In this document: one piece after another, positions 2,831-30,414 of the stretch | How the letters are laid out: the number at the start of each line of letters is the position of its first letter | Position numbering within the stretch: the stretch's first letter is position 1 | Assembly: GCF_036917375.1 (NCBI RefSeq) | Contig: NZ_JBALDN010000078.1 | Location: forward strand, 36,511 to 68,510 | Direction of reading: 5' to 3' | Source: Nostoc sp. | GTDB lineage: Bacteria; Cyanobacteriota; Cyanobacteriia; Cyanobacteriales; Nostocaceae | Length of the DNA: 32,000 bases | The notes under the pieces: model-generated | Seen by the model: only the letters and a program-made list of their open reading frames with translations | Told to the model about the DNA's origin: nothing | Databases searched by the model: none | Position numbers and translations under genes: made by a program

Positions 2831-3655
2831 ATGCGACGTGACACCATCTTCTATAAATTATTTAAGCAATTTCCTGGTTTGCTATTTGAATTAGTAGATG
2901 AACCACCCCCAGAAGCGGAGAACTACCAGTTTGAATCAGTTGAGGTGAAAGAAACGGCGTTTCGGATTGATGGAGTATTTTTACCTCCCGCTAATGCAGT
3001 TTCCAAAACCGTCTTTTTTGCAGAAGTCCAGTTTCAGAAGGACGAAGACTTATATCACCGCTTCTTTAGTGAATTGTTTTTGTTTCTCTACCGCCACTCT
3101 ATCCGCTACGATGACTGGTTTGGAGTCATAATTTTTGGTTCTCGCAGCCTGGAACCTTCTTCCTCTTCGATTCACCGTACTTTGTTGGAAAGTGGTCAAG
3201 TCAGGCGGGTTTATCTGGATGAGTTGGGGGATTTGCGACAACAATCTTTGGGATTAGGTTTGATGTTGCTGACAAATGTTACTTCTGAAACCGAAGCAGT
3301 GGAAGGGGCACGGTTTTTGCTAGAACAAGCACGGCAACAATCGGAGCAAGCGATAATTGATTTAGTGACGACGATTATCGTCTACAAATTTTCTAACCTG
3401 AGTCGAGAGGAGATTGCAGCAATGTTGGGACTGAATTTGGAAGAACCACGGGCGATTCGGGAAGCGAAGGAAGAAGAAGCGCGATCGCTCATCTTACGAC
3501 TGTTAAACCGACGGGTAGGTGCGGTTCCTGAACAGCTTCAGCGCCAGATTCAAGTGTTGTCGCTAGAACAGTCTGAAGCTTTATGTGATGCTTTGTTAGA
3601 TTTCTCTACTCTTGCTGATTTGGAAGGGTGGTTACAAGGTGAAGTAAGGGGGTAA
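2831..3655 (+). CDS. Rpn-family / DUF2887 PD-(D/E)XK nuclease-like protein with a DUF4351-like C-terminal domain
   Basis: The N-terminus MRRDTIFYKLFKQFPGLLFEL...FRIDGVFLPP...FFAEVQFQKD is typical of cyanobacterial Rpn/DUF2887 proteins. It is a paralogue of 27755-28576. Confidence 0.75.
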   Translation: MRRDTIFYKLFKQFPGLLFELVDEPPPEAENYQFESVEVKETAFRIDGVFLPPANAVSKTVFFAEVQFQKDEDLYHRFFSELFLFLYRHSIRYDDWFGVIIFGSRSLEPSSSSIHRTLLESGQVRRVYLDELGDLRQQSLGLGLMLLTNVTSETEAVEGARFLLEQARQQSEQAIIDLVTTIIVYKFSNLSREEIAAMLGLNLEEPRAIREAKEEEARSLILRLLNRRVGAVPEQLQRQIQVLSLEQSEALCDALLDFSTLADLEGWLQGEVRG

Positions 3656-3996: not shown

Positions 3997-4857
3997 TTGA
4001 TTTCATTCAGTAGCTACAAAGTAACTGCATCTAAGTGGATTACCATATTTGACTCACCATTTTACCCTGATTCTTTAGATGAAGCTAAAATGCTCTACGA
4101 GAAAGTTTTGGAGCGTTTCATAGAATTGGTAGACGAAGCAACAAACTCTGCAAATTTACTCGAAATCATTACAAAAGAGCCTGATCCTTTACGTATTCAA
4201 CTTCTTAGAGTATTTCGGAGGTATGTATCACCAGATACGACAGTAGAAATGACCAAGAAAAAACGTGATATTCCTAATATAATTAACGACTTTGGTGATA
4301 GATTTCGTAGTTTAGAAGAGGTTAGAAGAAACTTGCAAAGTCGTCCTGTACCCGATGAAACTCTAATGGCTCTTCTTTTAGAACAGAGTAAACGGGGACA
4401 AAAAGGCTATGACTTGACAGAAGCGTTTTTCTTATGGTTTGACAGAGTATTTGGTAAAAACTATATAATTCGGGGGCCAGTTCGTGCTGGAAAAGATGTA
4501 ATGCTTGATAAGGTTTTGGATAATTGGGAAGCTCAAACTCCAGCAGATATTTTTATATCTCGATTAGATGGAACCCCCTTAGTAGTTGGATTTGCTCGGT
4601 ATGACTCTGATAGAGGAGGTTCTCAAGAAGATGATCGGACTGGTGGAAATCGAGATAAAGCAACTGATATTCTCAGATATGCTGATACATATAAAGTGGC
4701 TTTAAAAGTATTTTTTTTGAATGATGGGCCAGGATTACTACTAGGATCTATGTGGAATGATTATGCTCGTCTAGAAAGTTATGGTAGTGGCAAAATAATG
4801 GTATGCACTCTGAAAATGCTTGATGAGAGATTTACACAAGATTGGCTTGAAAGTTGA
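3997..4857 (+). CDS. Putative type II restriction endonuclease, called by context only
   Basis: 286-aa ORF with no recognisable family. It is convergent with, and overlaps by 26 bp, a DPPY DNA methyltransferase, and both lie in the same low-GC, HIP1-free block. The start is uncertain: TTG at 3997 or ATG at 4090. Confidence 0.45.
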   Translation: MISFSSYKVTASKWITIFDSPFYPDSLDEAKMLYEKVLERFIELVDEATNSANLLEIITKEPDPLRIQLLRVFRRYVSPDTTVEMTKKKRDIPNIINDFGDRFRSLEEVRRNLQSRPVPDETLMALLLEQSKRGQKGYDLTEAFFLWFDRVFGKNYIIRGPVRAGKDVMLDKVLDNWEAQTPADIFISRLDGTPLVVGFARYDSDRGGSQEDDRTGGNRDKATDILRYADTYKVALKVFFLNDGPGLLLGSMWNDYARLESYGSGKIMVCTLKMLDERFTQDWLES

Positions 4858-6145
4858 GTTTTCTATCCCACTCATGTATTACAGTATCAGAGATAAACTC
4901 TAATTCTGGTGTTTCTTCAATATATAAATCTAGACCACTTCGTAAAATTCTATTTATACCTATCAAGCACTTTTGTTCATGTTTAGGGGAACTATTTCCG
5001 TTAATGAAGTCACCCATTATTTCTGTTCCGTTAACTAAACGCTGAACTATTGTAGCTATAGCAAGTTGCGAATTATCAATAGCTATCCATTTTCTACCTA
5101 ACTCTTCAGCTACAGCAGCAGTAGTACCACTTCCCGCGAATGCATCTAACACAATATCTCCCTGATTAGATGAGGCTAGAATTATTCGTTTGATCATATC
5201 TGGATTTTTTTCTGTTGGATAGCCAGTAATTTTAATATTTTGATTGTGAGCGTCCTTGAAGTCAAGCCAAATATCTTGGACTGAAATACCCTGGCTATTA
5301 TCTAAATAAACTTTTCTTCTTGGGTTCCCTGTTGGTGACCAGTAAATCTCTCCGCGTGCATCCATTTCGTCTAAAGTTTCTGGAGTATATTGCCAGTGTT
5401 TACCTGGAGGAGGTAATATTCCTCTCCAGGGTTGACCTGTTGCACCTTTTCTTACACCTGGTGCATGAACAGGAACTTTCTTATAAACTCTTCCAGTCTC
5501 CTTTTCAACATATTGATACTCTTTCTTTGCAGTAGTTTCAGTCCAAGGGTTAAAAGGCTGATTCCATATATAATTATCTGTTTTTGTGTAAAATAGAATG
5601 TAGTCAGCGGTGTTTCCGTACTGTTTACGTGTATAGTTTTTTGGGTTACATTTTTTTCTTGTAATCAAATTGCGAAAGTTTTTAGAACCAAAAATTTCAT
5701 CCATTATAATTTTGACAGCACAAGCCATCTTGTCATCTAAATGTATATAAATAGAACCTTCATCTGATAAAAGTTCTCTTAATAAAACCAGTCGTTGACG
5801 TAAAAACTCTAAATATTCTGCACCTTCCATTAGGTCGTGGTAAGCATGGTCTCTTTGACGAGACTCAAAACTACTCCCTGTTGCATAGGGGGGGTCAATA
5901 TAAATCAAACTAACTTTACCCGCGATAGTATCATCGTTCAAGAATGAACTAAGAACTCTTAAATTCTCTCCATAGATGAGTCTGTTTCTTGGATGTTCAT
6001 CTATACTGATTATGCGATTTAACTTGGCTACAGGAATTTTTAATATATCCTCTATAGGAATTTTCCCTTCATATTCCAGACGAAAAGGAATTACATTTTG
6101 TTTTTGACTTTTACGACTATTTCGACTAGGTATTCCTGTTGCCAT
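4832..6145 (-). CDS. Beta-class DNA methyltransferase (N-4/N-6 MTase family). The DPPY motif points to N6-adenine specificity.
   Basis: Motif IV 'LIYIDPPYATGS' precedes motif I 'VLDAFAGSGTTAAVAEELGRKWIAIDNS' near the C-terminus. This IV-then-I order is the beta-group order. Confidence 0.85.
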   Translation of the reverse strand: MATGIPSRNSRKSQKQNVIPFRLEYEGKIPIEDILKIPVAKLNRIISIDEHPRNRLIYGENLRVLSSFLNDDTIAGKVSLIYIDPPYATGSSFESRQRDHAYHDLMEGAEYLEFLRQRLVLLRELLSDEGSIYIHLDDKMACAVKIIMDEIFGSKNFRNLITRKKCNPKNYTRKQYGNTADYILFYTKTDNYIWNQPFNPWTETTAKKEYQYVEKETGRVYKKVPVHAPGVRKGATGQPWRGILPPPGKHWQYTPETLDEMDARGEIYWSPTGNPRRKVYLDNSQGISVQDIWLDFKDAHNQNIKITGYPTEKNPDMIKRIILASSNQGDIVLDAFAGSGTTAAVAEELGRKWIAIDNSQLAIATIVQRLVNGTEIMGDFINGNSSPKHEQKCLIGINRILRSGLDLYIEETPELEFISDTVIHEWDRKLNFQANLV

Positions 6146-9821: not shown

Positions 9822-11105
9822 ATGTTCGCCCACAAAATCCTAGTTGTTGAGGATGAAAAAAATCTAACCTCAAATATTAGAAAAACTTTACAAAAATTAG
9901 GTTATCTAGTATCAGAAATAACTGAATCTGGTGAAGAGGTAATAAAAAAGGTAGCAGAAACTCATCCACATTTAGTATTAATTGATATCTGTTTAGCTGG
10001 AGAAATAGATGGTCTCCACGTAGCGGATATTATCCAGAATCAATTCCATGTGCCTGTAGTATATCTAACAGAGTGTTCGGAATATAAAGCATTACATAAA
10101 AATCAGCTAAGTGAGCCTTTTAGTTACATAGCCAAACCATTTCTTGAAAGTGATTTACATTTTGTGATTGAAATGACACTGTACAAACATCAGAGCAAAA
10201 AAACATTATACGAAGAAAAACAGAGGTTGATGACAATTATTAATAGTATGGGTTGTGCAGTGATTGTTACCTATGCAAATGGTTGTATTGAAATGATGAA
10301 TCCCATAGCAGAACTAATCACTGGTTGGAAGCAAAGTGAAGCGTTGGGGAAAGATTTAATAGAAGTCGTTAACTTAGTTAATAAAGATGTAGGAGAAAAA
10401 ATTGAAAATTTAGCCACTTATGTAATCGAAGCAGGTAAAGTTTTCAATTTACCAGAAAACTGTACATTAATTACCAAAGATGGTAAAGAAATAGCGATTG
10501 GGGATAATGTTGCACCTATCCGCGATCGAGATGGCAATATTACTGGCGCGGTTTTAGTTTTTCAAGACATCACTAAACGTAAGCAGACAGAGGCACAACT
10601 GATCCGCAATGCATTTTATGATGGGTTAACAGAATTACCGAATCGTGTTTTATTTTTAGATCGGCTCAGACAAACTATTGAACGTAGCAAACGCAGAAGC
10701 GATTATTATTTTGCAGTTTTATTTTTGGATTTAGATGGCTTCAAAGAGATTAACGATCGCTTTGGGCATGGAATAGGAGATGATTTTTTAGTAGCGATCG
10801 CTAGACGTTTAGAGTCATGCTTACGTAGTGGCGATACTGTAGCACGATTTGGTGGTGATGAGTTTACTGTTCTTTTGGAGGATATTAAAGACATAACCGA
10901 CGCTACCAATGTTGCCAAACGTATTCAAGACTCCTTAAGATTGCCAGTTAACCTGAATGGATATCAATTATCTGCTACGGCTAGCATTGGTATTACTTGG
11001 AATTTTAATAATTATGAGGAGCCTGCAACTCTACTACGGGATGCTGATATTGCGATGTACCAAGCTAAACGCCAGGGAAAAGCTACTTATGCCATATTTA
11101 GTTAA
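9822..11105 (+). CDS. Response regulator (REC)-PAS-GGDEF diguanylate cyclase
   Basis: The REC domain has the acidic pocket (VVEDE), acceptor Asp (LVLIDICL) and AKPF. A PAS region follows. The GGDEF motif 'RFGGDEF' has an RxxD I-site (RSGD) at the canonical spacing. Confidence 0.9.
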   Translation: MFAHKILVVEDEKNLTSNIRKTLQKLGYLVSEITESGEEVIKKVAETHPHLVLIDICLAGEIDGLHVADIIQNQFHVPVVYLTECSEYKALHKNQLSEPFSYIAKPFLESDLHFVIEMTLYKHQSKKTLYEEKQRLMTIINSMGCAVIVTYANGCIEMMNPIAELITGWKQSEALGKDLIEVVNLVNKDVGEKIENLATYVIEAGKVFNLPENCTLITKDGKEIAIGDNVAPIRDRDGNITGAVLVFQDITKRKQTEAQLIRNAFYDGLTELPNRVLFLDRLRQTIERSKRRSDYYFAVLFLDLDGFKEINDRFGHGIGDDFLVAIARRLESCLRSGDTVARFGGDEFTVLLEDIKDITDATNVAKRIQDSLRLPVNLNGYQLSATASIGITWNFNNYEEPATLLRDADIAMYQAKRQGKATYAIFS

Positions 11106-20420: not shown

Positions 20421-21029
20421 TTTTCGGGTTTTGGGGGAAAGGGTTTGAATTTACCTTTCCCCCTTTGCCCTTTAACCTTTTCCCAGACCAAAAGAGAAAT
20501 TGTTAGGCTTATCCGAAAAGTATTGCATTGGGAATTAGGCATTGGGCAAAAGGGGTCTTTTTCCTCAATTTTGAATTTTGATGTAAGGGCGATCGCGGGT
20601 CAAAATGAAATCAATTGCTTTAAGAGAGCGATCGCTTTTCTAATGTGGAGAAGGCAATCGCAGTTTAATCAAAGGAGCGATCGCACACCCTTCCCTTATA
20701 TCTGCGCTGATTTGGCGACTTGCGTCTGGATACAGCAGGCTCAGTTTTTTTATTTTCCCAATTACTGAAAAGTGATTGCCCTATTAGACTTGCCCCTTAC
20801 CCCCATTAATCTATGATGGCGGATTATTTTCGATAAGCTCGCTGCGCGAACCGACGAAATGTAAACCGTTCTAGAGATGTGTTCCACCTTATAGCCCAAT
20901 CGTGTAATGCTGGATGACTCAAAAGGCGTAACAATGAGCTAACTACAAATTTTTACCTTAATTGCGAAATTTAGCCTAGAAACCATGTAGTAATAGGTAA
21001 AATAGGATGCCGCGCTTACGAGGTAGCAC

Positions 21030-21452
21030 ATGGAGCCATTAACAGCTGGTGCGATCGCTTTCACAACTTGGGTAGTGGGTAAAATCATTGACTGGTCAAC
21101 AGACAAAACCTTCGATATAGCTTCAGAAAGGCTGATGCAACTCCTGAAGCAGAAATCGCCAGATACAGCCAAAGCCTTAACGTTAGCTAAGGAAAACGCC
21201 GCCTTACCACTAGGCGAACGAGAAGATATTGGTGAAGCTGTTTTGGTAGAAGAAGTGAAAAAGGCAGCAGCCACAAACCCAGAAATTAAAGCAGCAGTAG
21301 AAGCTTTAGGAAATGATATAAATCTTGCTGTAACTGAGAATCCCGAAGTAGAAAAGCGGTTAACAACTGTGATTGAAAATTGGCAAGGGATAAATATTAA
21401 AGGCGGAAAGCCAACTATCAAGAACAACACCCTTAACTTTGGCAGCAAATGA
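21030..21452 (+). CDS. Small helical protein with a hydrophobic N-terminal helix and a C-terminal N/G/K-rich motif shared with the downstream NLR. It is a candidate Bell/HeLo-like membrane-targeting effector.
   Basis: 140 aa. 'MEPLTAGAIAFTTWVVGKIIDW' is hydrophobic. The middle is charged and helical by composition. The C-terminus 'ENWQGINIKGGKPTIKNNTLNFG' repeats the N-terminus of the next gene. 'gagg' lies 7 nt upstream of the ATG, and the stop overlaps the next start (ATGA). Confidence 0.7.
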   Translation: MEPLTAGAIAFTTWVVGKIIDWSTDKTFDIASERLMQLLKQKSPDTAKALTLAKENAALPLGEREDIGEAVLVEEVKKAAATNPEIKAAVEALGNDINLAVTENPEVEKRLTTVIENWQGINIKGGKPTIKNNTLNFGSK

Positions 21453-21526
21453 CTAGCGAAAATTGGCAAGGGATAAATATTAAAGGCGGAAAGCCAACTA
21501 TCAAGGACAATACCTTCATCTTTGAG
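21375..21526 (+). repeat. Direct repeat with an 83-nt offset that encodes the shared motif
   Basis: 21375-21422 and 21458-21505 are 48/48 identical ('gaaaattggcaagggataaatattaaaggcggaaagccaactatcaag'). The next 19 nt match at 14/19. Beyond that, similarity stops. Confidence 0.95.
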
Positions 21527-23983
21527 TCGCCTAAACAAAATTCCCCAAACAATCTTCTATACTCCGGCTCTGCTAACTTTGTTGGTAGAGAGTATGAACT
21601 CAGCCAAGTGAGTGAAAAATTACAAAAACAAGATTTTGTAGCAATTTCTGCTGTGTCTGGTATGGGTGGAGTTGGCAAAACCGAATTAGCACTCAGATAT
21701 GCACGTCAGCATGAAGCTGATTACCCTGGTGGTATTTGCTGGTTAAATGCGAGAGATTCAAATTTAGCTGCTGAAATTGTGCAGTTTGCCCAAATTTACA
21801 TGAAACTGGAAGTACAGCAGCAGGATTTTCGTGGAAGGGCGCTGAGTCTAACTGAACAGGTAGCTTGGTGTTGGCAGCATTGGCAGCCAGCAGAGGGACG
21901 GGTGCTAATTGTACTAGATGATGTGACATCTTTAGAGGGTTGTCGAGATGTTCTACCAAGGGCTAACCGTTTTCGGGTGTTGATGACAACGCGATCACGG
22001 AATCTAGACTCCAATATTGAGGAAATTTCCTTAGATGTACTCTTACCAAAAGAAGCTTTGGAACTATTGACAGTACTCGTGGGTACTAAACGAGTACAAA
22101 AAGAACTCTCAGTAGCTAAACAATTGTGTGAATGGTTGGGATATCTACCTTTAGGGTTGGAGTTGGTTGGGAGGTATTTGGCGAAAAAACCTCCCAACTG
22201 GTCTTTAGCTCGTATGTTGCAACAACTCAAAGAACAACTGCTGGAAAATGTTGCCCTCAAATTGTCGCAACAGCAAACCCTAAGCACTGCACAGCGAGGT
22301 GTTTTAGTAGCATTTGAATTAAGCTGGCTTGAACTTTCTCATACGACGCAGCGTGTTGCCGCATTATTAAGCTTATTTGCAGCAAATATTTTTGCGATTG
22401 AATGGGTAGAGTCTGCAACTGGATTACTCAATTGGACGAGTGATGATGTTAAGACAGCTAACGACCAACTATATGAACTCCATTTGATTCAATGGGTAGA
22501 AGATACAGAAGGTGAGTCTAAAATTAGAATTCATCCCTTAATTCGGGAGTTTTTGAAAGTTAAACTAGATGCTATTGAACAAGCTTTTCAATTCAAGCAG
22601 GCTTTTGCAGAGACTATTGTTGCGATCGCTCAAGATATTCCCTATTCACCAACTCAGGAGTTGATTAGGCGTGTCAAAGATGCTATCCCACATTTAGCAG
22701 AGGTGGCACAAAATCTGACTGATGCAGTCAGTGATGAAAATTTACTTTCGGTATTTGTTGGATTAGATGGATTTTATTCTGGACAGGGATTATATGCGCT
22801 TGCTCAATCTTGGTGTGAGCAGTGTATATCAGTACTACAATTCCGCTTGGGAGAAGACCATCCCGATGTCGCCGACAGTTACAACAACCTGGCAGCACTC
22901 TACGAATCCCAAGGTCGGTACAGCGAGGCAGAGCCACTGTATGAAAGAGCGTTAGAACTATGGCAACGGATCTTCGGAGAAGAGCATTCCTATGTCGCCA
23001 CCAGTTACAACAACCTGGCTCTACTCTACTATCACCAAGGTCGGTACAGCGAGGCAGAGCCACTGTATAAAAGAGCATTAGAACTATGGCAACGGATCTT
23101 CGGAGAAGAGCATCACTCTGTCGCCACCAGTTACAACAACCTGGCTCTACTCTACTCATCCCAAGGGCGGTACAGCGAAGCAGAGCCACTGTATGAAAAA
23201 GCATTAAAACTCCGGCAACATCTGCTGGGAGAAGAGCATCCCTCTGTCGCCACCAGTTACAACAACCTGGCTCTACTCTACTTCTACCAAGGACGGTACA
23301 GCGAAGCAGAGCCACTGTATAAAAAAGCATTAGAACTCCAGCAACGGCTGCTGGGAGAAAAGCATCCCTCTGTCGCCAACAGTTACAACAACCTTGGAGG
23401 ACTCTACAAGAATCAAGGACGGTACAGCGAAGCGGAACTACTGTATAAAAAAGCATTAGAACTCCAGCAACGGCTGCTGGGAGAAGAGCATCCCTCTGTC
23501 GCCACTAGTTACAACAACCTAGCAGCACTCTACGACTCCCAAGGACGGTACAGCGAAGCGGAACTACTGTATAAAAAAGCACTAGAACTCCAGCAACGGC
23601 TGCTGGGAGAAGAGCATCCCGATGTCGCCAACAGTTACAACAACCTTGGAGGACTTTACAAGAACCAAGGACGGTACAGCGAAGCGGAGCCACTGTATAA
23701 AAAAGCATTAGAACTCCGGCAACATCTGCTGGGAGAAGAGCATCCCTCTGTCGCCACTAGTTACAACAACCTGGCTCTACTATACTCATCCCAAGGACAG
23801 TACAGCGAAGCGGAACTACTGTTCCAAAAAGCTTTGCAACTTTATGAGCAACAGTTAGGTGTAGGTCATTCAGAAACAATAATAGCTAGAAAAAATTACG
23901 CAGAGTTTTTGCGTGATTATGCAAATTTTTTAAGGAGCAAACTAAGTGGCAGTAATATTCCACCTTTGAGCCATTACGTGTAA
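21449..23983 (+). CDS. NLR-like STAND NTPase: N-terminal short motif, NB-ARC domain, then about 9 TPR (TPR_10/12-type) repeats
   Basis: NB-ARC signatures appear in order: Walker A 'SGMGGVGKTELA' (nt 21659-21682), Walker B 'RVLIVLDDV', 'RVLMTTRSRN', the GLPL-like 'LGYLPLGLELVG', and the MHD-like 'IRIHPLIREFL'. These are followed by 42-aa repeats 'VA.SYNNLA.LY..QGRYSEAEPLY.KALEL.Q.LLGEEHP'. Confidence 0.9.
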   Translation: MTSENWQGINIKGGKPTIKDNTFIFESPKQNSPNNLLYSGSANFVGREYELSQVSEKLQKQDFVAISAVSGMGGVGKTELALRYARQHEADYPGGICWLNARDSNLAAEIVQFAQIYMKLEVQQQDFRGRALSLTEQVAWCWQHWQPAEGRVLIVLDDVTSLEGCRDVLPRANRFRVLMTTRSRNLDSNIEEISLDVLLPKEALELLTVLVGTKRVQKELSVAKQLCEWLGYLPLGLELVGRYLAKKPPNWSLARMLQQLKEQLLENVALKLSQQQTLSTAQRGVLVAFELSWLELSHTTQRVAALLSLFAANIFAIEWVESATGLLNWTSDDVKTANDQLYELHLIQWVEDTEGESKIRIHPLIREFLKVKLDAIEQAFQFKQAFAETIVAIAQDIPYSPTQELIRRVKDAIPHLAEVAQNLTDAVSDENLLSVFVGLDGFYSGQGLYALAQSWCEQCISVLQFRLGEDHPDVADSYNNLAALYESQGRYSEAEPLYERALELWQRIFGEEHSYVATSYNNLALLYYHQGRYSEAEPLYKRALELWQRIFGEEHHSVATSYNNLALLYSSQGRYSEAEPLYEKALKLRQHLLGEEHPSVATSYNNLALLYFYQGRYSEAEPLYKKALELQQRLLGEKHPSVANSYNNLGGLYKNQGRYSEAELLYKKALELQQRLLGEEHPSVATSYNNLAALYDSQGRYSEAELLYKKALELQQRLLGEEHPDVANSYNNLGGLYKNQGRYSEAEPLYKKALELRQHLLGEEHPSVATSYNNLALLYSSQGQYSEAELLFQKALQLYEQQLGVGHSETIIARKNYAEFLRDYANFLRSKLSGSNIPPLSHYV
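22868..23875 (+). repeat. Eight tandem 126-bp units (42-aa TPR pairs) with very high nucleotide identity inside the NLR gene
   Basis: The 'gtcgcc' unit starts at 22868, 22994, 23120, 23246, 23372, 23498, 23624 and 23750, an exact 126-nt period. A degenerate unit precedes them at 22742-22867. Confidence 0.95.
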
Positions 23984-24174
23984 TGGGGGGCGAAAAGTAT
24001 TATTTTCTCCTGGTTGTGAGCAGCGTCACTAACCTTGAGTATTTTCCCAACTTAGGATCATAAGTTGGGATTTGAGTTCTGACTGGATTAAATAGTTGAA
24101 TTATATTTATGATACTTTTGAGCGCGATCGCCTTCGCCGTAAATCGGGTTAAGGCAAAAAAACTCATCATCTAA

Positions 24175-24410
24175 TACCTCAAAACGACTTTCAGGTACCT
24201 CAAAACGACTTTGAAGTACCTCAACACGACTTTGAAGTACCTCAAAACGACTTTGGAGTACCTCAACACGACTTTGAAGTACCTCAAAACGACTTTCAGG
24301 TACCTCAAAACGACTTTTAAGTACCTCAAAACGACTTTGAAGTACCTCGAAACGACTTTCAGGTACCTCAAAACGACTTTTAAGTACCTCAAAACGACTT
24401 TCAGGTACCT
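24175..24410. repeat. 21-bp tandem repeat, 11 full copies plus a partial copy (consensus TACCTCAAAACGACTTTSARG)
   Basis: Units start at 24175, 24196, 24217, 24238, 24259, 24280, 24301, 24322, 24343, 24364 and 24385, with the partial copy at 24406-24410. Variation is confined to unit positions 7 and 9 and the last 4 nt (cagg/gaag/ggag/taag). Confidence 0.95.
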
Positions 24411-27754: not shown

Positions 27755-28576
27755 GTGAAAACTGACAGCATTTTTTATCGTCTTTTTCAAGAACTTCCTG
27801 GCATCTTTTTTGAATTAATTGGTAATCCACCCCAAACGGCAGAGGGTTATAAATTCTCCTCAATTGAAATCAAGCAAACGGCATTCCGTATAGATGGTGT
27901 TTTTCTCCCAACACAAGGAGAAGAAAATCCGATTTATTGTGTTGAAGTCCAGTTTCAAACTGACACAGAAATTTATTCACGTTTATTTTCAGAAATTTAT
28001 TTATACTTACGCCAAAATAAACCGAAAAATTCTTGGCGAGGAGTAGTTATCTATCCCAATCGCAGTTTAGATACAGCAGATATCAAGAATTACAGTGAAA
28101 TTTTCACCAGTCAGCGCGTCAGTCGCATTTATCTTAATGAATTAGGTGAAACTGCATCATTGCCAGTTGGAATTGCTACGATGAAATTAGTGGTCGATGA
28201 AGAGGAGACAGCAATTCTAGCTGCTAGGCAGTTAATAGAAAGAACCCAGCAAGAAATCAACATCGAACCACAACGGCGACAGTTACTAGAATTGATAGAG
28301 ACAATATTAGTTTATAAGTTTCCGGCAATGAGTCGAGAGGAGATTGAAGGTATGTTTGGGTTAAGTGATTTGAAACAAACACGAGTTTATCAAGAAGGCA
28401 AACAAGAAGGCAAACAAGAAGGCAAGCAAGAAGGAGCGCGTGAAGAAAAGTTTAGAATGATACCTTTGTTGTTGAGATTGGGATTGAGTTTTGAAGAAAC
28501 TGCGAAAGAGTTAGGTTTGAGCCTAGAAGAGATTCAGCAAGAAATGCAAAAACAGCCTCCAAGTCAGGATATGTAA
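27755..28576 (+). CDS. Rpn-family / DUF2887 PD-(D/E)XK nuclease-like protein with a DUF4351-like C-terminus (second paralogue)
   Basis: 'MKTDSIFYRLFQELPGIFFEL...FRIDGVFLPT...YCVEVQFQTD' parallels 2831-3655. It has a GTG start. Confidence 0.75.
   Translation: MKTDSIFYRLFQELPGIFFELIGNPPQTAEGYKFSSIEIKQTAFRIDGVFLPTQGEENPIYCVEVQFQTDTEIYSRLFSEIYLYLRQNKPKNSWRGVVIYPNRSLDTADIKNYSEIFTSQRVSRIYLNELGETASLPVGIATMKLVVDEEETAILAARQLIERTQQEINIEPQRRQLLELIETILVYKFPAMSREEIEGMFGLSDLKQTRVYQEGKQEGKQEGKQEGAREEKFRMIPLLLRLGLSFEETAKELGLSLEEIQQEMQKQPPSQDM
28391..28435 (+). repeat. In-frame 12-nt microsatellite (CAAGAAGGCAAA x3.7) encoding (QEGK)n
   Basis: 'caagaaggcaaacaagaaggcaaacaagaaggcaagcaagaagga' is read directly inside the Rpn-like CDS. 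Confidence 0.9.
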
Positions 28577-29859: not shown

Positions 29860-30414
29860 ATGTTAGTTTCCAAACACAACGATGTTGTAACCGTCCCCGA
29901 AATCCTTTCATTAGAAGACTTCATGGCAAATCCTCCAGAGGGCATGGAGTGGGTAGACGAGCAATTAGTAGAAAAAACAGGGATGACATTAAAACATAGT
30001 GAAATTCAATTGAATATTGGTTTTTTCTGGAGAAGTTACATCAATTCCAATCAACAAGGTGGGAAAGTTTACACTGAAGTACCTTGTCGTACATATAAAC
30101 AGGGTCGTCGTCCTGATGTAGCTTATCTAACGCCTGAGTTGGTAACTGAGTTTGGCGATCTTCCCACTTTGCCACAGAGTTTCCCGTTGATTGCTGAGAT
30201 AGTTTCACCCACCGATTTAGCTGAAGAATTATTTCTCAACGCGCAGGAGTATTTGCAGTCTGGTTGCGAGGAAGTTTGGCTATTATTTCCTGAAAGCCGA
30301 TTAGTTTTTGTAATGACTGATAATCAGCTTTTGGGATTTAAAGCTGGTGATGTGGTTAGTACTCAAAAAGTATTACTCGGTTTTAGTGTAGCCATAGATG
30401 AATTGTTGGGTTGA
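29860..30414 (+). CDS. Uma2-family (DUF820) PD-(D/E)XK endonuclease-like protein
   Basis: 'RRPDVAYL...AEIVSPTD...K...Y...G..EVWLL' matches the pattern typical of the abundant cyanobacterial Uma2 family. Confidence 0.75.
   Translation: MLVSKHNDVVTVPEILSLEDFMANPPEGMEWVDEQLVEKTGMTLKHSEIQLNIGFFWRSYINSNQQGGKVYTEVPCRTYKQGRRPDVAYLTPELVTEFGDLPTLPQSFPLIAEIVSPTDLAEELFLNAQEYLQSGCEEVWLLFPESRLVFVMTDNQLLGFKAGDVVSTQKVLLGFSVAIDELLG

Follow-up and report, generated by a model that had tools for sequence, protein, structure and literature searches.

Amyloid signaling pairs of bacteria were catalogued by Dyrka et al. (2020; bioRxiv 10.1101/2020.01.06.895854), who defined the Bell domain and ten motif families, the bacterial amyloid signaling sequences (BASS). 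In their definition, a Bell protein has about 120 to 140 amino acids (aa) and an N-terminal hydrophobic α-helix with an acidic residue at position 2 or 3; an overlapping collinear gene arrangement is found in 42% of the published pairs, and the class bass_07 of their Table S2 comprises seven pairs. For BASS1 and BASS3, that report describes motifs that form fibrils and prions, the motif of the NOD-like receptor (NLR) converting the one on the Bell side. Bab/Agp (BASS11) of E. coli ECOR25 is an amyloid-dependent abortive-infection system, in which the motif common to both proteins assembles into amyloid and thereby switches on a Bell-like effector, which relocates to the cell periphery or membrane (10.1101/2024.11.07.622273). 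Here, we analyzed a stretch of 32,000 nucleotides (nt) from Nostoc sp. (contig NZ_JBALDN010000078.1, positions 36,511 to 68,510), referred to below as the window, and describe a self-contained two-gene Bell/BASS7-NLR cassette in this Nostoc chromosome, at window positions 21030 to 23983. By all sequence criteria examined, the locus is with near certainty a member of the Bell/BASS7-NLR family. Systems of this kind are already known, the catalogue of 2020 including an example that is 96% identical; the additions made here are evidence for gene conversion between the motif copies, a Bell-BASS7/BASS7-TIR pair and an in-frame UGA architecture in relatives.

A Bell protein and an NLR encoded by overlapping genes share a BASS7 motif

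The small open reading frame (ORF; 21030..21452, plus strand) encodes a 140-aa Bell-domain effector, assigned by homology to the Bell proteins of Table S2, with a C terminus that reads ...ENWQGINIKGGKPTIKNNTLNFGSK or, in a second excerpt, ...TTVIENWQGINIKGGKPTIKNNTLNFGSK. The large ORF (21449..23983, plus strand) encodes an NLR of 844 aa with the N terminus MTSENWQGINIKGGKPTIKDNTFIFE, in which Pfam matches, the motif and the nearest solved nucleotide-binding oligomerization domains (NODs) delineate a BASS7, an NB-ARC and a TPR part. The genes meet at AAATGACTAGC and overlap by 4 nt, stop and start codons being combined in ATGA (21449..21452, plus strand), and this overlap may couple their translation. 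Both ORF sizes and the overlap are exactly those reported in a preliminary description of the locus, made from the sequence alone, and in NCBI the same two genes follow one another, the first as MEH2175192.1, annotated only as "hypothetical protein [Nostoc sp.]", and the second as MEH2175193.1, annotated only as "tetratricopeptide repeat protein".

The Bell-side motif, ENWQGINIKGGKPTIKNNTLNF (residues 116 to 137; 21375..21440, plus strand), and the NLR-side motif, ENWQGINIKGGKPTIKDNTFIF (residues 4 to 25; 21458..21523, plus strand), agree at 19 of 22 residues and at 61 of 66 nt, the first 48 nt (16 residues) being identical. In the DNA they form a direct repeat (21375-21441 and 21458-21524) of 93% identity with a spacing of 83 nt, and chance cannot account for 48 nt repeated exactly at this distance. 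When compared directly with the seven BASS7 rows of Table S2, the motif matched the BASS7 instances, (N)ENWQGINIKGGxxTIxxNTFNF. Thus, one motif stands both at the C terminus of the effector and at the N terminus of the adjacent NLR, in collinear genes with a 4-nt overlap. The preliminary description had noticed a motif of about 22 aa common to these two termini and had proposed an amyloid-signaling type of pair, which is supported by the BASS7 motif and the 96% identity of the effector to OYE01691.1; its statement that the motif could not be assigned to a named BASS family is superseded by the Table S2 comparison.

The small protein was identical at 135 of 140 residues (96%) to OYE01691.1, a BASS7 example of Dyrka et al. 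(2020), with which it falls in the same 90% cluster, and it was homologous to AKG20974.1 (P0055, E = 1.2e-23) and OUL32057.1 (P0027, E = 2.7e-33); P0055 and P0027 carry exactly the motif strings, at the positions, that are given for these two accessions in Table S2. Homologs numbered 138 in a word-indexed search and 218 as profile matches among 1.84 billion representatives. Nearly all of them have 57 to 170 aa, and those with a named source are all cyanobacterial, mostly from filamentous genera. The N terminus, MEPLTAGAIA, has an acidic residue at position 2 followed by a hydrophobic helix, in line with the Bell definition, as is the length of 140 aa, and it matches the "MEPIS"-type N terminus of the Bab/Agp paper (10.1101/2024.11.07.622273). 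Across the family, M1, T5, G7 and I9 are invariant, and E2, P3, A8 and A10 are conserved in at least 90% of the sequences. Hydropathy was maximal at residues 2 to 22, and the hydrophobic helix (residues 3 to 20, after M-E-P; 21036..21089, plus strand) is proposed to insert into membranes. An AlphaFold (AF2) monomer model built from an alignment of 21 sequences (predicted local distance difference test score [pLDDT] of 75; predicted template modeling score [pTM] of 0.72) was all-helical, with six helices at residues 3-15, 26-42, 44-57, 69-82, 84-103 and 105-116, which gives a Bell body of about 115 aa, and an unstructured tail at 120-140; the pLDDT fell below 50 from residue 120 on, a stretch that includes most of the Bell-side motif. 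Both the hydropathy peak and the helices up to residue 116 agree with the earlier account of a hydrophobic N-terminal helix followed by a helical body. By analogy with the described effectors, the Bell protein would target the membrane and kill the cell.

In the large protein, Pfam placed an NB-ARC NTPase domain at residues 48 to 276 (21590..22276, plus strand) with 75.1 bits against a cutoff of 23.5, Walker A being encoded at 21659-21682 and Walker B at 21905-21925. Every NB-ARC signature named in the preliminary description is present, namely GMGGVGKT (Walker A, residue 71), LIVLDDV (Walker B, 153), LMTTR (178), IHPL (361) and, in the translation, LPLGL. The nearest solved NODs were those of AfsR (9.5e-19) and Apaf-1 (1.3e-06). 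C-terminal repeats follow, as in an NLR: TPR_12 and TPR_10 were matched in 8 to 9 stretches (TPR_12 with 495.9 bits, TPR_10 in 9 stretches), and eight near-identical 42-aa units (residues 469 to 804; 22853..23860, plus strand), presumed to form the ligand-sensing surface, recur with a 126-nt period (7.7 copies, 87% matches); the earlier count of about nine units is consistent with the nine TPR_10 stretches. The units are 80 to 88% identical at the DNA level, and their variation is concentrated at unit positions 18, 19, 37, 39 and 15; among units 2 to 8, 204 nonsynonymous versus 116 synonymous codon differences were counted, most of them at five or six positions. NLR orthologs vary in the number of TPR units, with lengths between 697 and 1258 aa. 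Such a pattern is in keeping with shuffled repeats and a diversifying sensor surface.

Comparison with described systems

The closest described relative is the published BASS7 pair with OYE01691.1, which resembles the window pair in its Bell protein (135 of 140 residues), its motif, its overlapping collinear genes and the BASS7 motif at the NLR N terminus. It comes from a different genome and strain, and its two motif copies differ at 2 of 20 aligned residues (K/E and I/T), whereas the window copies are identical over their first 16 residues and 48 nt, because of what appears to be gene conversion (see below). The BASS1 pair CAB66307.1/CAB66306.1 of Streptomyces coelicolor and the BASS3 pairs have the same plan as the window, with a Bell protein that carries the motif at its C terminus, an adjacent NB-ARC/TPR NLR that carries it at its N terminus, and overlapping ORFs. 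However, the BASS1 motif (...ASGSARIYQAGRDQHI...) is unrelated in sequence to that of the window, and the phylum is a different one.

Like Bab/Agp, the window pair combines an effector with an adjacent sensor: the effector is small and helical and has a conserved hydrophobic helix at the N terminus and an amyloid motif at the C terminus, and the sensor carries this motif N-terminally. The sensor of Bab/Agp has the architecture TPR-GreA/B-C-PIN, in contrast to NB-ARC/TPR in the window; its effector is a "Babybell" of about 80 aa, compared with a Bell body of about 115 aa; and it sits in a prophage defense hotspot, while the window neighbors are ordinary chromosomal genes. In sensor architecture, effector size and location, the locus therefore falls outside Bab/Agp and would work like it without being a member. 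Fungal HET-S/NWD2 pairs a HeLo effector, which is helical, targets the membrane and bears the HRAM motif, with a NACHT-WD NLR from the neighboring gene, whose N-terminal motif templates the one at the C terminus of the effector, the logic also proposed for the window pair. The window protein has no Pfam HeLo match (E up to 1) and a single motif copy instead of two HRAM pseudorepeats; the window NLR is of the NB-ARC/TPR rather than the NACHT/WD type, and the window genes are bacterial, codirectional and overlapping. The relation to HET-S/NWD2 is one of analogy only.

Motif copies co-vary in related loci and appear to be homogenized by gene conversion

For comparison, 46 related loci were fetched, scans of sequence collections having yielded at least 2 metagenome loci and at least 15 genome loci. 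The ATGA overlap and the 83-nt copy spacing recur in eight further distinct loci, from genomes of Nostoc, Komarekiella, Calothrix, Gloeotrichia and Aetokthonos and from one metagenome contig; the overlap is the same in L016, L020, L021, L022, L026, L028 and L030. L019 probably has it as well, the start called there being the ATGA, although another in-frame ATG lies 6 nt upstream. In other loci, the two genes are 57 to 211 nt apart or nearly abut (-7 to +7 nt). The preliminary description had made its proposal depend on conservation or co-variation of the motif copies in orthologous pairs, and the copies do co-vary: among 18 distinct two-copy pairs, identity was 15.6 of 22 residues within pairs versus 13.65 of 22 between pairs (permutation p of about 5e-5, with shared ancestry uncorrected). 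The co-variation also holds in the variable second half of the motif.

The window pair is the most homogenized of all, with identical codons in 18 of 19 positions that encode the same residue. In its closest ortholog, L016, copy 1 is the same as window copy 1, and copy 2 has five differences within nt 27 to 42, one of which changes K to E; the same E is present in the NLR of the published strain 232. Because L016 and strain 232 keep a diverged copy 2, the pattern indicates that copy 2 of the window (21458-21505) was recently overwritten by copy 1 (21375-21422) through gene conversion. Similar homogenized tracts were seen in L022 (46 of 48 nt) and L019 (first 37 nt identical). By eye, no leftover flank homology of an 83-nt tandem duplication was found beyond the motif itself, and the duplication is therefore old, with only the motif homogenized. 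We propose that motif compatibility is kept in part by gene conversion between copies 83 nt apart.

The cassette, from about 20880 to about 24030 (about 3.1 kb), is conserved across differing genomic contexts, its flanks in relatives containing Mob_Pre, relaxase/TraG/ParA, integrase or toxin-antitoxin genes. Specifically, the cassettes of L019, L020, L022 and L023 adjoin genes for Mob_Pre, relaxase, TraG/TrwB, ParA, Prim-Pol or integrase, which suggests that these flanks are plasmids or integrative elements. The cassette appears to be horizontally mobile.

In another group of relatives (L035 to L044, e.g., L035:3001-4004), a Bell-BASS7 gene is followed after 5 nt by a gene for a 202-aa TIR_2 protein, which has a GTG start and an N-terminal BASS7 motif (VTTEDWKGINIKGGKLIINNPTFNI) at the same 83-nt copy spacing as in the window, so that here two effector-type proteins share the motif. 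A second TIR-like gene comes next in the L035 group, and an NLR was absent from the 3 kb fetched.

Proposed mechanism and alternative explanations

By homology and by analogy with BASS1, BASS3, BASS11 and HET-S/NWD2, we consider it likely that the window pair works by amyloid templating. The NB-ARC/TPR protein would be kept switched off as long as no cue is bound by its variable TPR surface; nucleotide-dependent oligomerization would then cluster several N-terminal BASS7 segments, which would fold cooperatively into a cross-β nucleus. This nucleus would act as a template for the 140-aa Bell protein, which would be present in larger amounts and whose BASS7 tail is identical, and polymerization of the tails would free the N-terminal hydrophobic helix (MEPLTAGAIAFTTWVVGKII) from its helical sheath, upon which the helix would insert in the membrane and cause cell death. 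A likely role for such a pair, again by analogy, is abortive infection or non-self-triggered cell death within the filament.

Several observations weigh against this account. The motif has three lysines and one proline, although depletion of K and P is reported for BASS motifs as a class. In the searchable literature, BASS7 figures in computational papers only, and no fibril, toxicity or phage data on it were found. The small protein had no meaningful match in Pfam (E up to 1), NCBIfam or PADLOC, an NCBIfam match to the WhiG sigma factor (E = 0.11) being dismissed as noise, and a PDB sequence profile search with it was empty, a Bab or Babybell relative not being detectable. A Foldseek search of the AF2 model against the PDB returned nothing with an E value below 1 (best, 1.2) and matched no fold significantly, HeLo, MLKL and coiled-coil (CC) folds included, the Rx CC domain being listed at an E value of 6.6 only; it spoke neither for nor against a HeLo-like fold, and topology is noted to vary (10.1101/2024.11.07.622273). 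The AF2 monomer also lacks β structure, as expected for an amyloid segment and hence uninformative. At the locus itself, the neighbors are ordinary chromosomal genes and there is no defense island. Finally, in the closest relative, with a 95% identical Bell protein (L016:4420-5385, L017 and L018), the NLR has only 321 aa and consists of an NB-ARC without TPR; this relative can therefore do without the system. Truncation of the sensor has recurred in nature: the NLR of L028 has 513 aa, versus 852 aa in its sister genome L029. L016, the only one of L016, L017 and L018 to extend so far, has a Phage_integrase fragment some 650 nt downstream.

Some of these points would equally suit a shared motif that serves as a non-amyloid docking tag, through a finite hetero-oligomeric β-strand interaction or co-assembly into a resistosome-like ring, without self-propagating templating. 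The atypical K and P content and the purely computational literature leave room for it, and relatives described below appear to need the motif once, between the Bell domain and the NOD, which fits a linker or oligomerization role. We regard a docking tag as quite unlikely, since the BASS families so far examined (1, 3 and 11) are all reported to form amyloid and to behave as prions, and since the N/G-rich strand-turn-strand pattern and the near-identity of the copies fit templating better. Even less room is left for an assembly or annotation artifact or a decaying relic, in which a single gene would have been split by an 83-nt tandem duplication and would have no part in signaling. The near-identity of the copies at the DNA level and the truncated NLR of the closest ortholog could be read in this way; yet neither ORF is interrupted, the copies co-vary, the NCBI annotation has two separate genes, and the ATGA overlap with the 83-nt spacing occurs in eight other distinct loci, in most of which synonymous sites have diverged. 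A split single gene, which the preliminary description had counted among the outcomes that would undo its proposal, is excluded by these eight loci, and we give the artifact in any form hardly any credence.

A different question is whether amyloid templating, if it operates here, serves against viruses. The same mechanism could drive allorecognition or a developmental or stress-related cell death in the filament, with a self-derived or symbiosis cue. Bell and BASS sequences are almost confined to multicellular bacteria (Dyrka et al. 2020), the locus lacks a defense island or a PADLOC match, and the 90% cluster of the small protein includes one from a lichen (Peltigera) cyanobiont, all of which would suit such a role. 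On the other hand, the sole functional test of a Bell-type/BASS system showed phage defense (10.1101/2024.11.07.622273), and the hypervariability of the TPR units and the association with plasmid or mobile genes in relatives are typical of immune genes. We therefore hold a non-antiviral role to be rather improbable, though less so than a docking tag.

Relatives join the Bell-BASS and NLR ORFs in frame across a UGA codon

In 12 distinct relatives, the Bell-BASS ORF ends with TGA-CT(A/G/C), and a STAND protein (signal transduction ATPase with numerous domains) continues at once in the same frame. Eleven of these loci encode an NB-ARC/TPR protein (TGA at L002:6397, L005:6054, L007:6376, L008:6484, L009:6376, L011:6376, L012:1254, L023:4412, L024:4379, L033:993 and L045:3397), and one encodes a NACHT/HEAT protein (L010:6484). 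One of them comes from Cylindrospermum stagnale PCC 7417; its NLR and that of the window are 68% identical. The in-frame NLRs are without a motif copy of their own, so that the motif occurs once per locus. Several features speak for a functional junction. Stop codon choice follows the architecture: all 12 in-frame loci have TGA followed by CTA, CTG or CTC, and all 9 distinct separate-gene loci, in which the genes are spaced, abutting or out of frame, have TAA.

The post-stop ORFs contain no ATG, GTG or TTG for 17 to 38 codons; the conserved N-terminal residues are not preceded by a canonical start, and in L008 none precedes Walker A. The peptide directly past the stop, L(Q/K)SPE(R/W/G)ER(V/A)K(L/S)NPP...FVGRE.EL, is conserved; from residue 26 on, directly past the motif of the window, the window NLR shares 68% identity with the post-stop ORF of L024; and the Pfam NB-ARC match sets in at residue 29 past the stop, ahead of the first canonical start. 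These data indicated that the post-stop peptide belongs to the NLR. Moreover, Walker A lies 48 to 55 codons past the stop across the loci, so the intervening indels are multiples of three and the frame is kept.

A 42-nt element follows the stop in the loci with the SPE.ER.K.NPP peptide. Identity at third codon positions is 0.77 across these 42 nt, compared with 0.45 over the 16 codons that precede the stop. The element preserves the rare codons TCG and CGG, and at codon 6, where the residue varies (W, R or G), NGG is retained. A GAC-N4-GUC hairpin, in which the GA of the stop takes part, and a 5-bp stem, GCCCG/CGGGU, beginning 8 nt after the UGA were predicted by RNAalifold as well as by hand; L023 has two compensatory pairs (UCCU/AGGA). 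Covariation support was weak (17 of 500 shuffles). The element is absent from two-ORF NLRs, that of the window included. In a tree of Bell domains the architectures interleave, L023 and L024 nesting within the clade of the window.

Programmed UGA readthrough is the most economical reading of the in-frame junction. Under this proposal, which we put forward tentatively and as a possibility somewhat short of even, termination at the UGA would yield abundant Bell-BASS protein and rare readthrough a Bell-BASS-NLR sensor. UGA-CUA(G) is prone to readthrough in mammals (PMC9841425), and in bacteria near-cognate Trp or Cys tRNAs do read through UGA, if rarely (PMC5373646). Non-canonical internal initiation is an alternative explanation, as is decoding of the UGA as selenocysteine (Sec). 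With regard to the latter, Rfam gave no match to a selenocysteine insertion sequence (SECIS) in the post-stop region of L024; in fact, no Rfam family was found at E values up to 1 in that region or in the whole window, nor was a known recoding element. Nostocales are not known to decode Sec. Poole et al. (1995), as cited in PMC9841425, reportedly found UGA-C leaky in E. coli.

No uninterrupted Bell-BASS-NB-ARC fusion occurred among the best 150 of the 218 profile matches, the four long matches being other proteins, and a scan of viral contigs for the post-stop element gave 0 hits. A literature search on readthrough or recoding in connection with NLR, NB-ARC or amyloid signaling retrieved no description of such a system, and the text of Dyrka et al. 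contains no such term. Readthrough was rejected for the window itself: its Bell stop is also TGA-CTA, but the in-frame extension has only 7 codons. The Bell/BASS-NLR lineage may switch between a design with a duplicated motif, AUGA coupling and gene conversion and a design with a single motif and an in-frame UGA.

Flanking features of the window

Upstream of the Bell gene, a conserved block (20877..21029, plus strand) is a putative promoter and 5' leader, judged by homology to the orthologous cassettes: nucleotide homology with them starts at 20877-20978 even though the neighboring genes differ, and the conserved blocks include TTAATTGCGAAATTTAG and AGAAACCATGTAGTAATA. A Shine-Dalgarno-like GAGG lies at 21020-21023, 6 nt 5' of the ATG. 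Downstream, a pattern match revealed a terminator-like hairpin with a 10-bp stem and a T-rich tail (24045..24080, plus strand), 62 nt past the NLR stop. Further 3' of the NLR gene and this hairpin, a 21-nt tandem repeat (TACCTCAAAACGACTTTGAAG) occupies 24175-24410 with 11.2 copies and 90% matches; it yields heptad-repeat ORFs on both strands (RYLKVVL...) and is probably non-coding cyanobacterial repeat DNA. Two antisense ORFs (20939-21538 and 22728-23456) were taken to arise incidentally from the coding strand and its repeats.

The upstream genes of the window encode DciA, a MenD-like protein, a GGDEF regulator, a glycosyltransferase, a penicillin-binding protein (PBP), ThiE and a DUF1565 protein, and the downstream genes encode TetR, a desaturase, DUF2887, Dus and Uma2. 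Two DUF2887 paralogs are present (2831-3655 and 27755-28576), one of them also with DUF4351, and the Uma2 gene, of a putative restriction endonuclease family, lies at 29860-30414. An N6_N4 DNA methylase gene (4832-6145, minus strand) and an unannotated ORF of 286 aa (3997-4857) run toward each other with a slight overlap and may form a restriction-modification pair. The segment 9001-10000 has a GC content of 0.26, compared with about 0.42 elsewhere, and is without an ORF of at least 150 aa; it lies upstream of a response-regulator/PAS/GGDEF gene (9822-11105).

Biological implications

BASS7 is a motif class specific to cyanobacteria, and the window locus is an intact, textbook-quality example of NLR-to-effector amyloid signaling of this class. 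While it adds no new kind of system, it is a reasonable candidate for the bench, and its homogenized tracts offer direct sequence evidence that gene conversion between the motif copies may keep sensor and effector compatible. The part worth following up is the in-frame UGA architecture of the relatives. If readthrough proves true, it would constitute a recoding-based stoichiometry device in a bacterial immune receptor, with the sensor arising, rarely, through extension of the executioner at its C terminus, and it would explain why many cyanobacterial Bell-BASS proteins apparently have no motif-bearing NLR partner.

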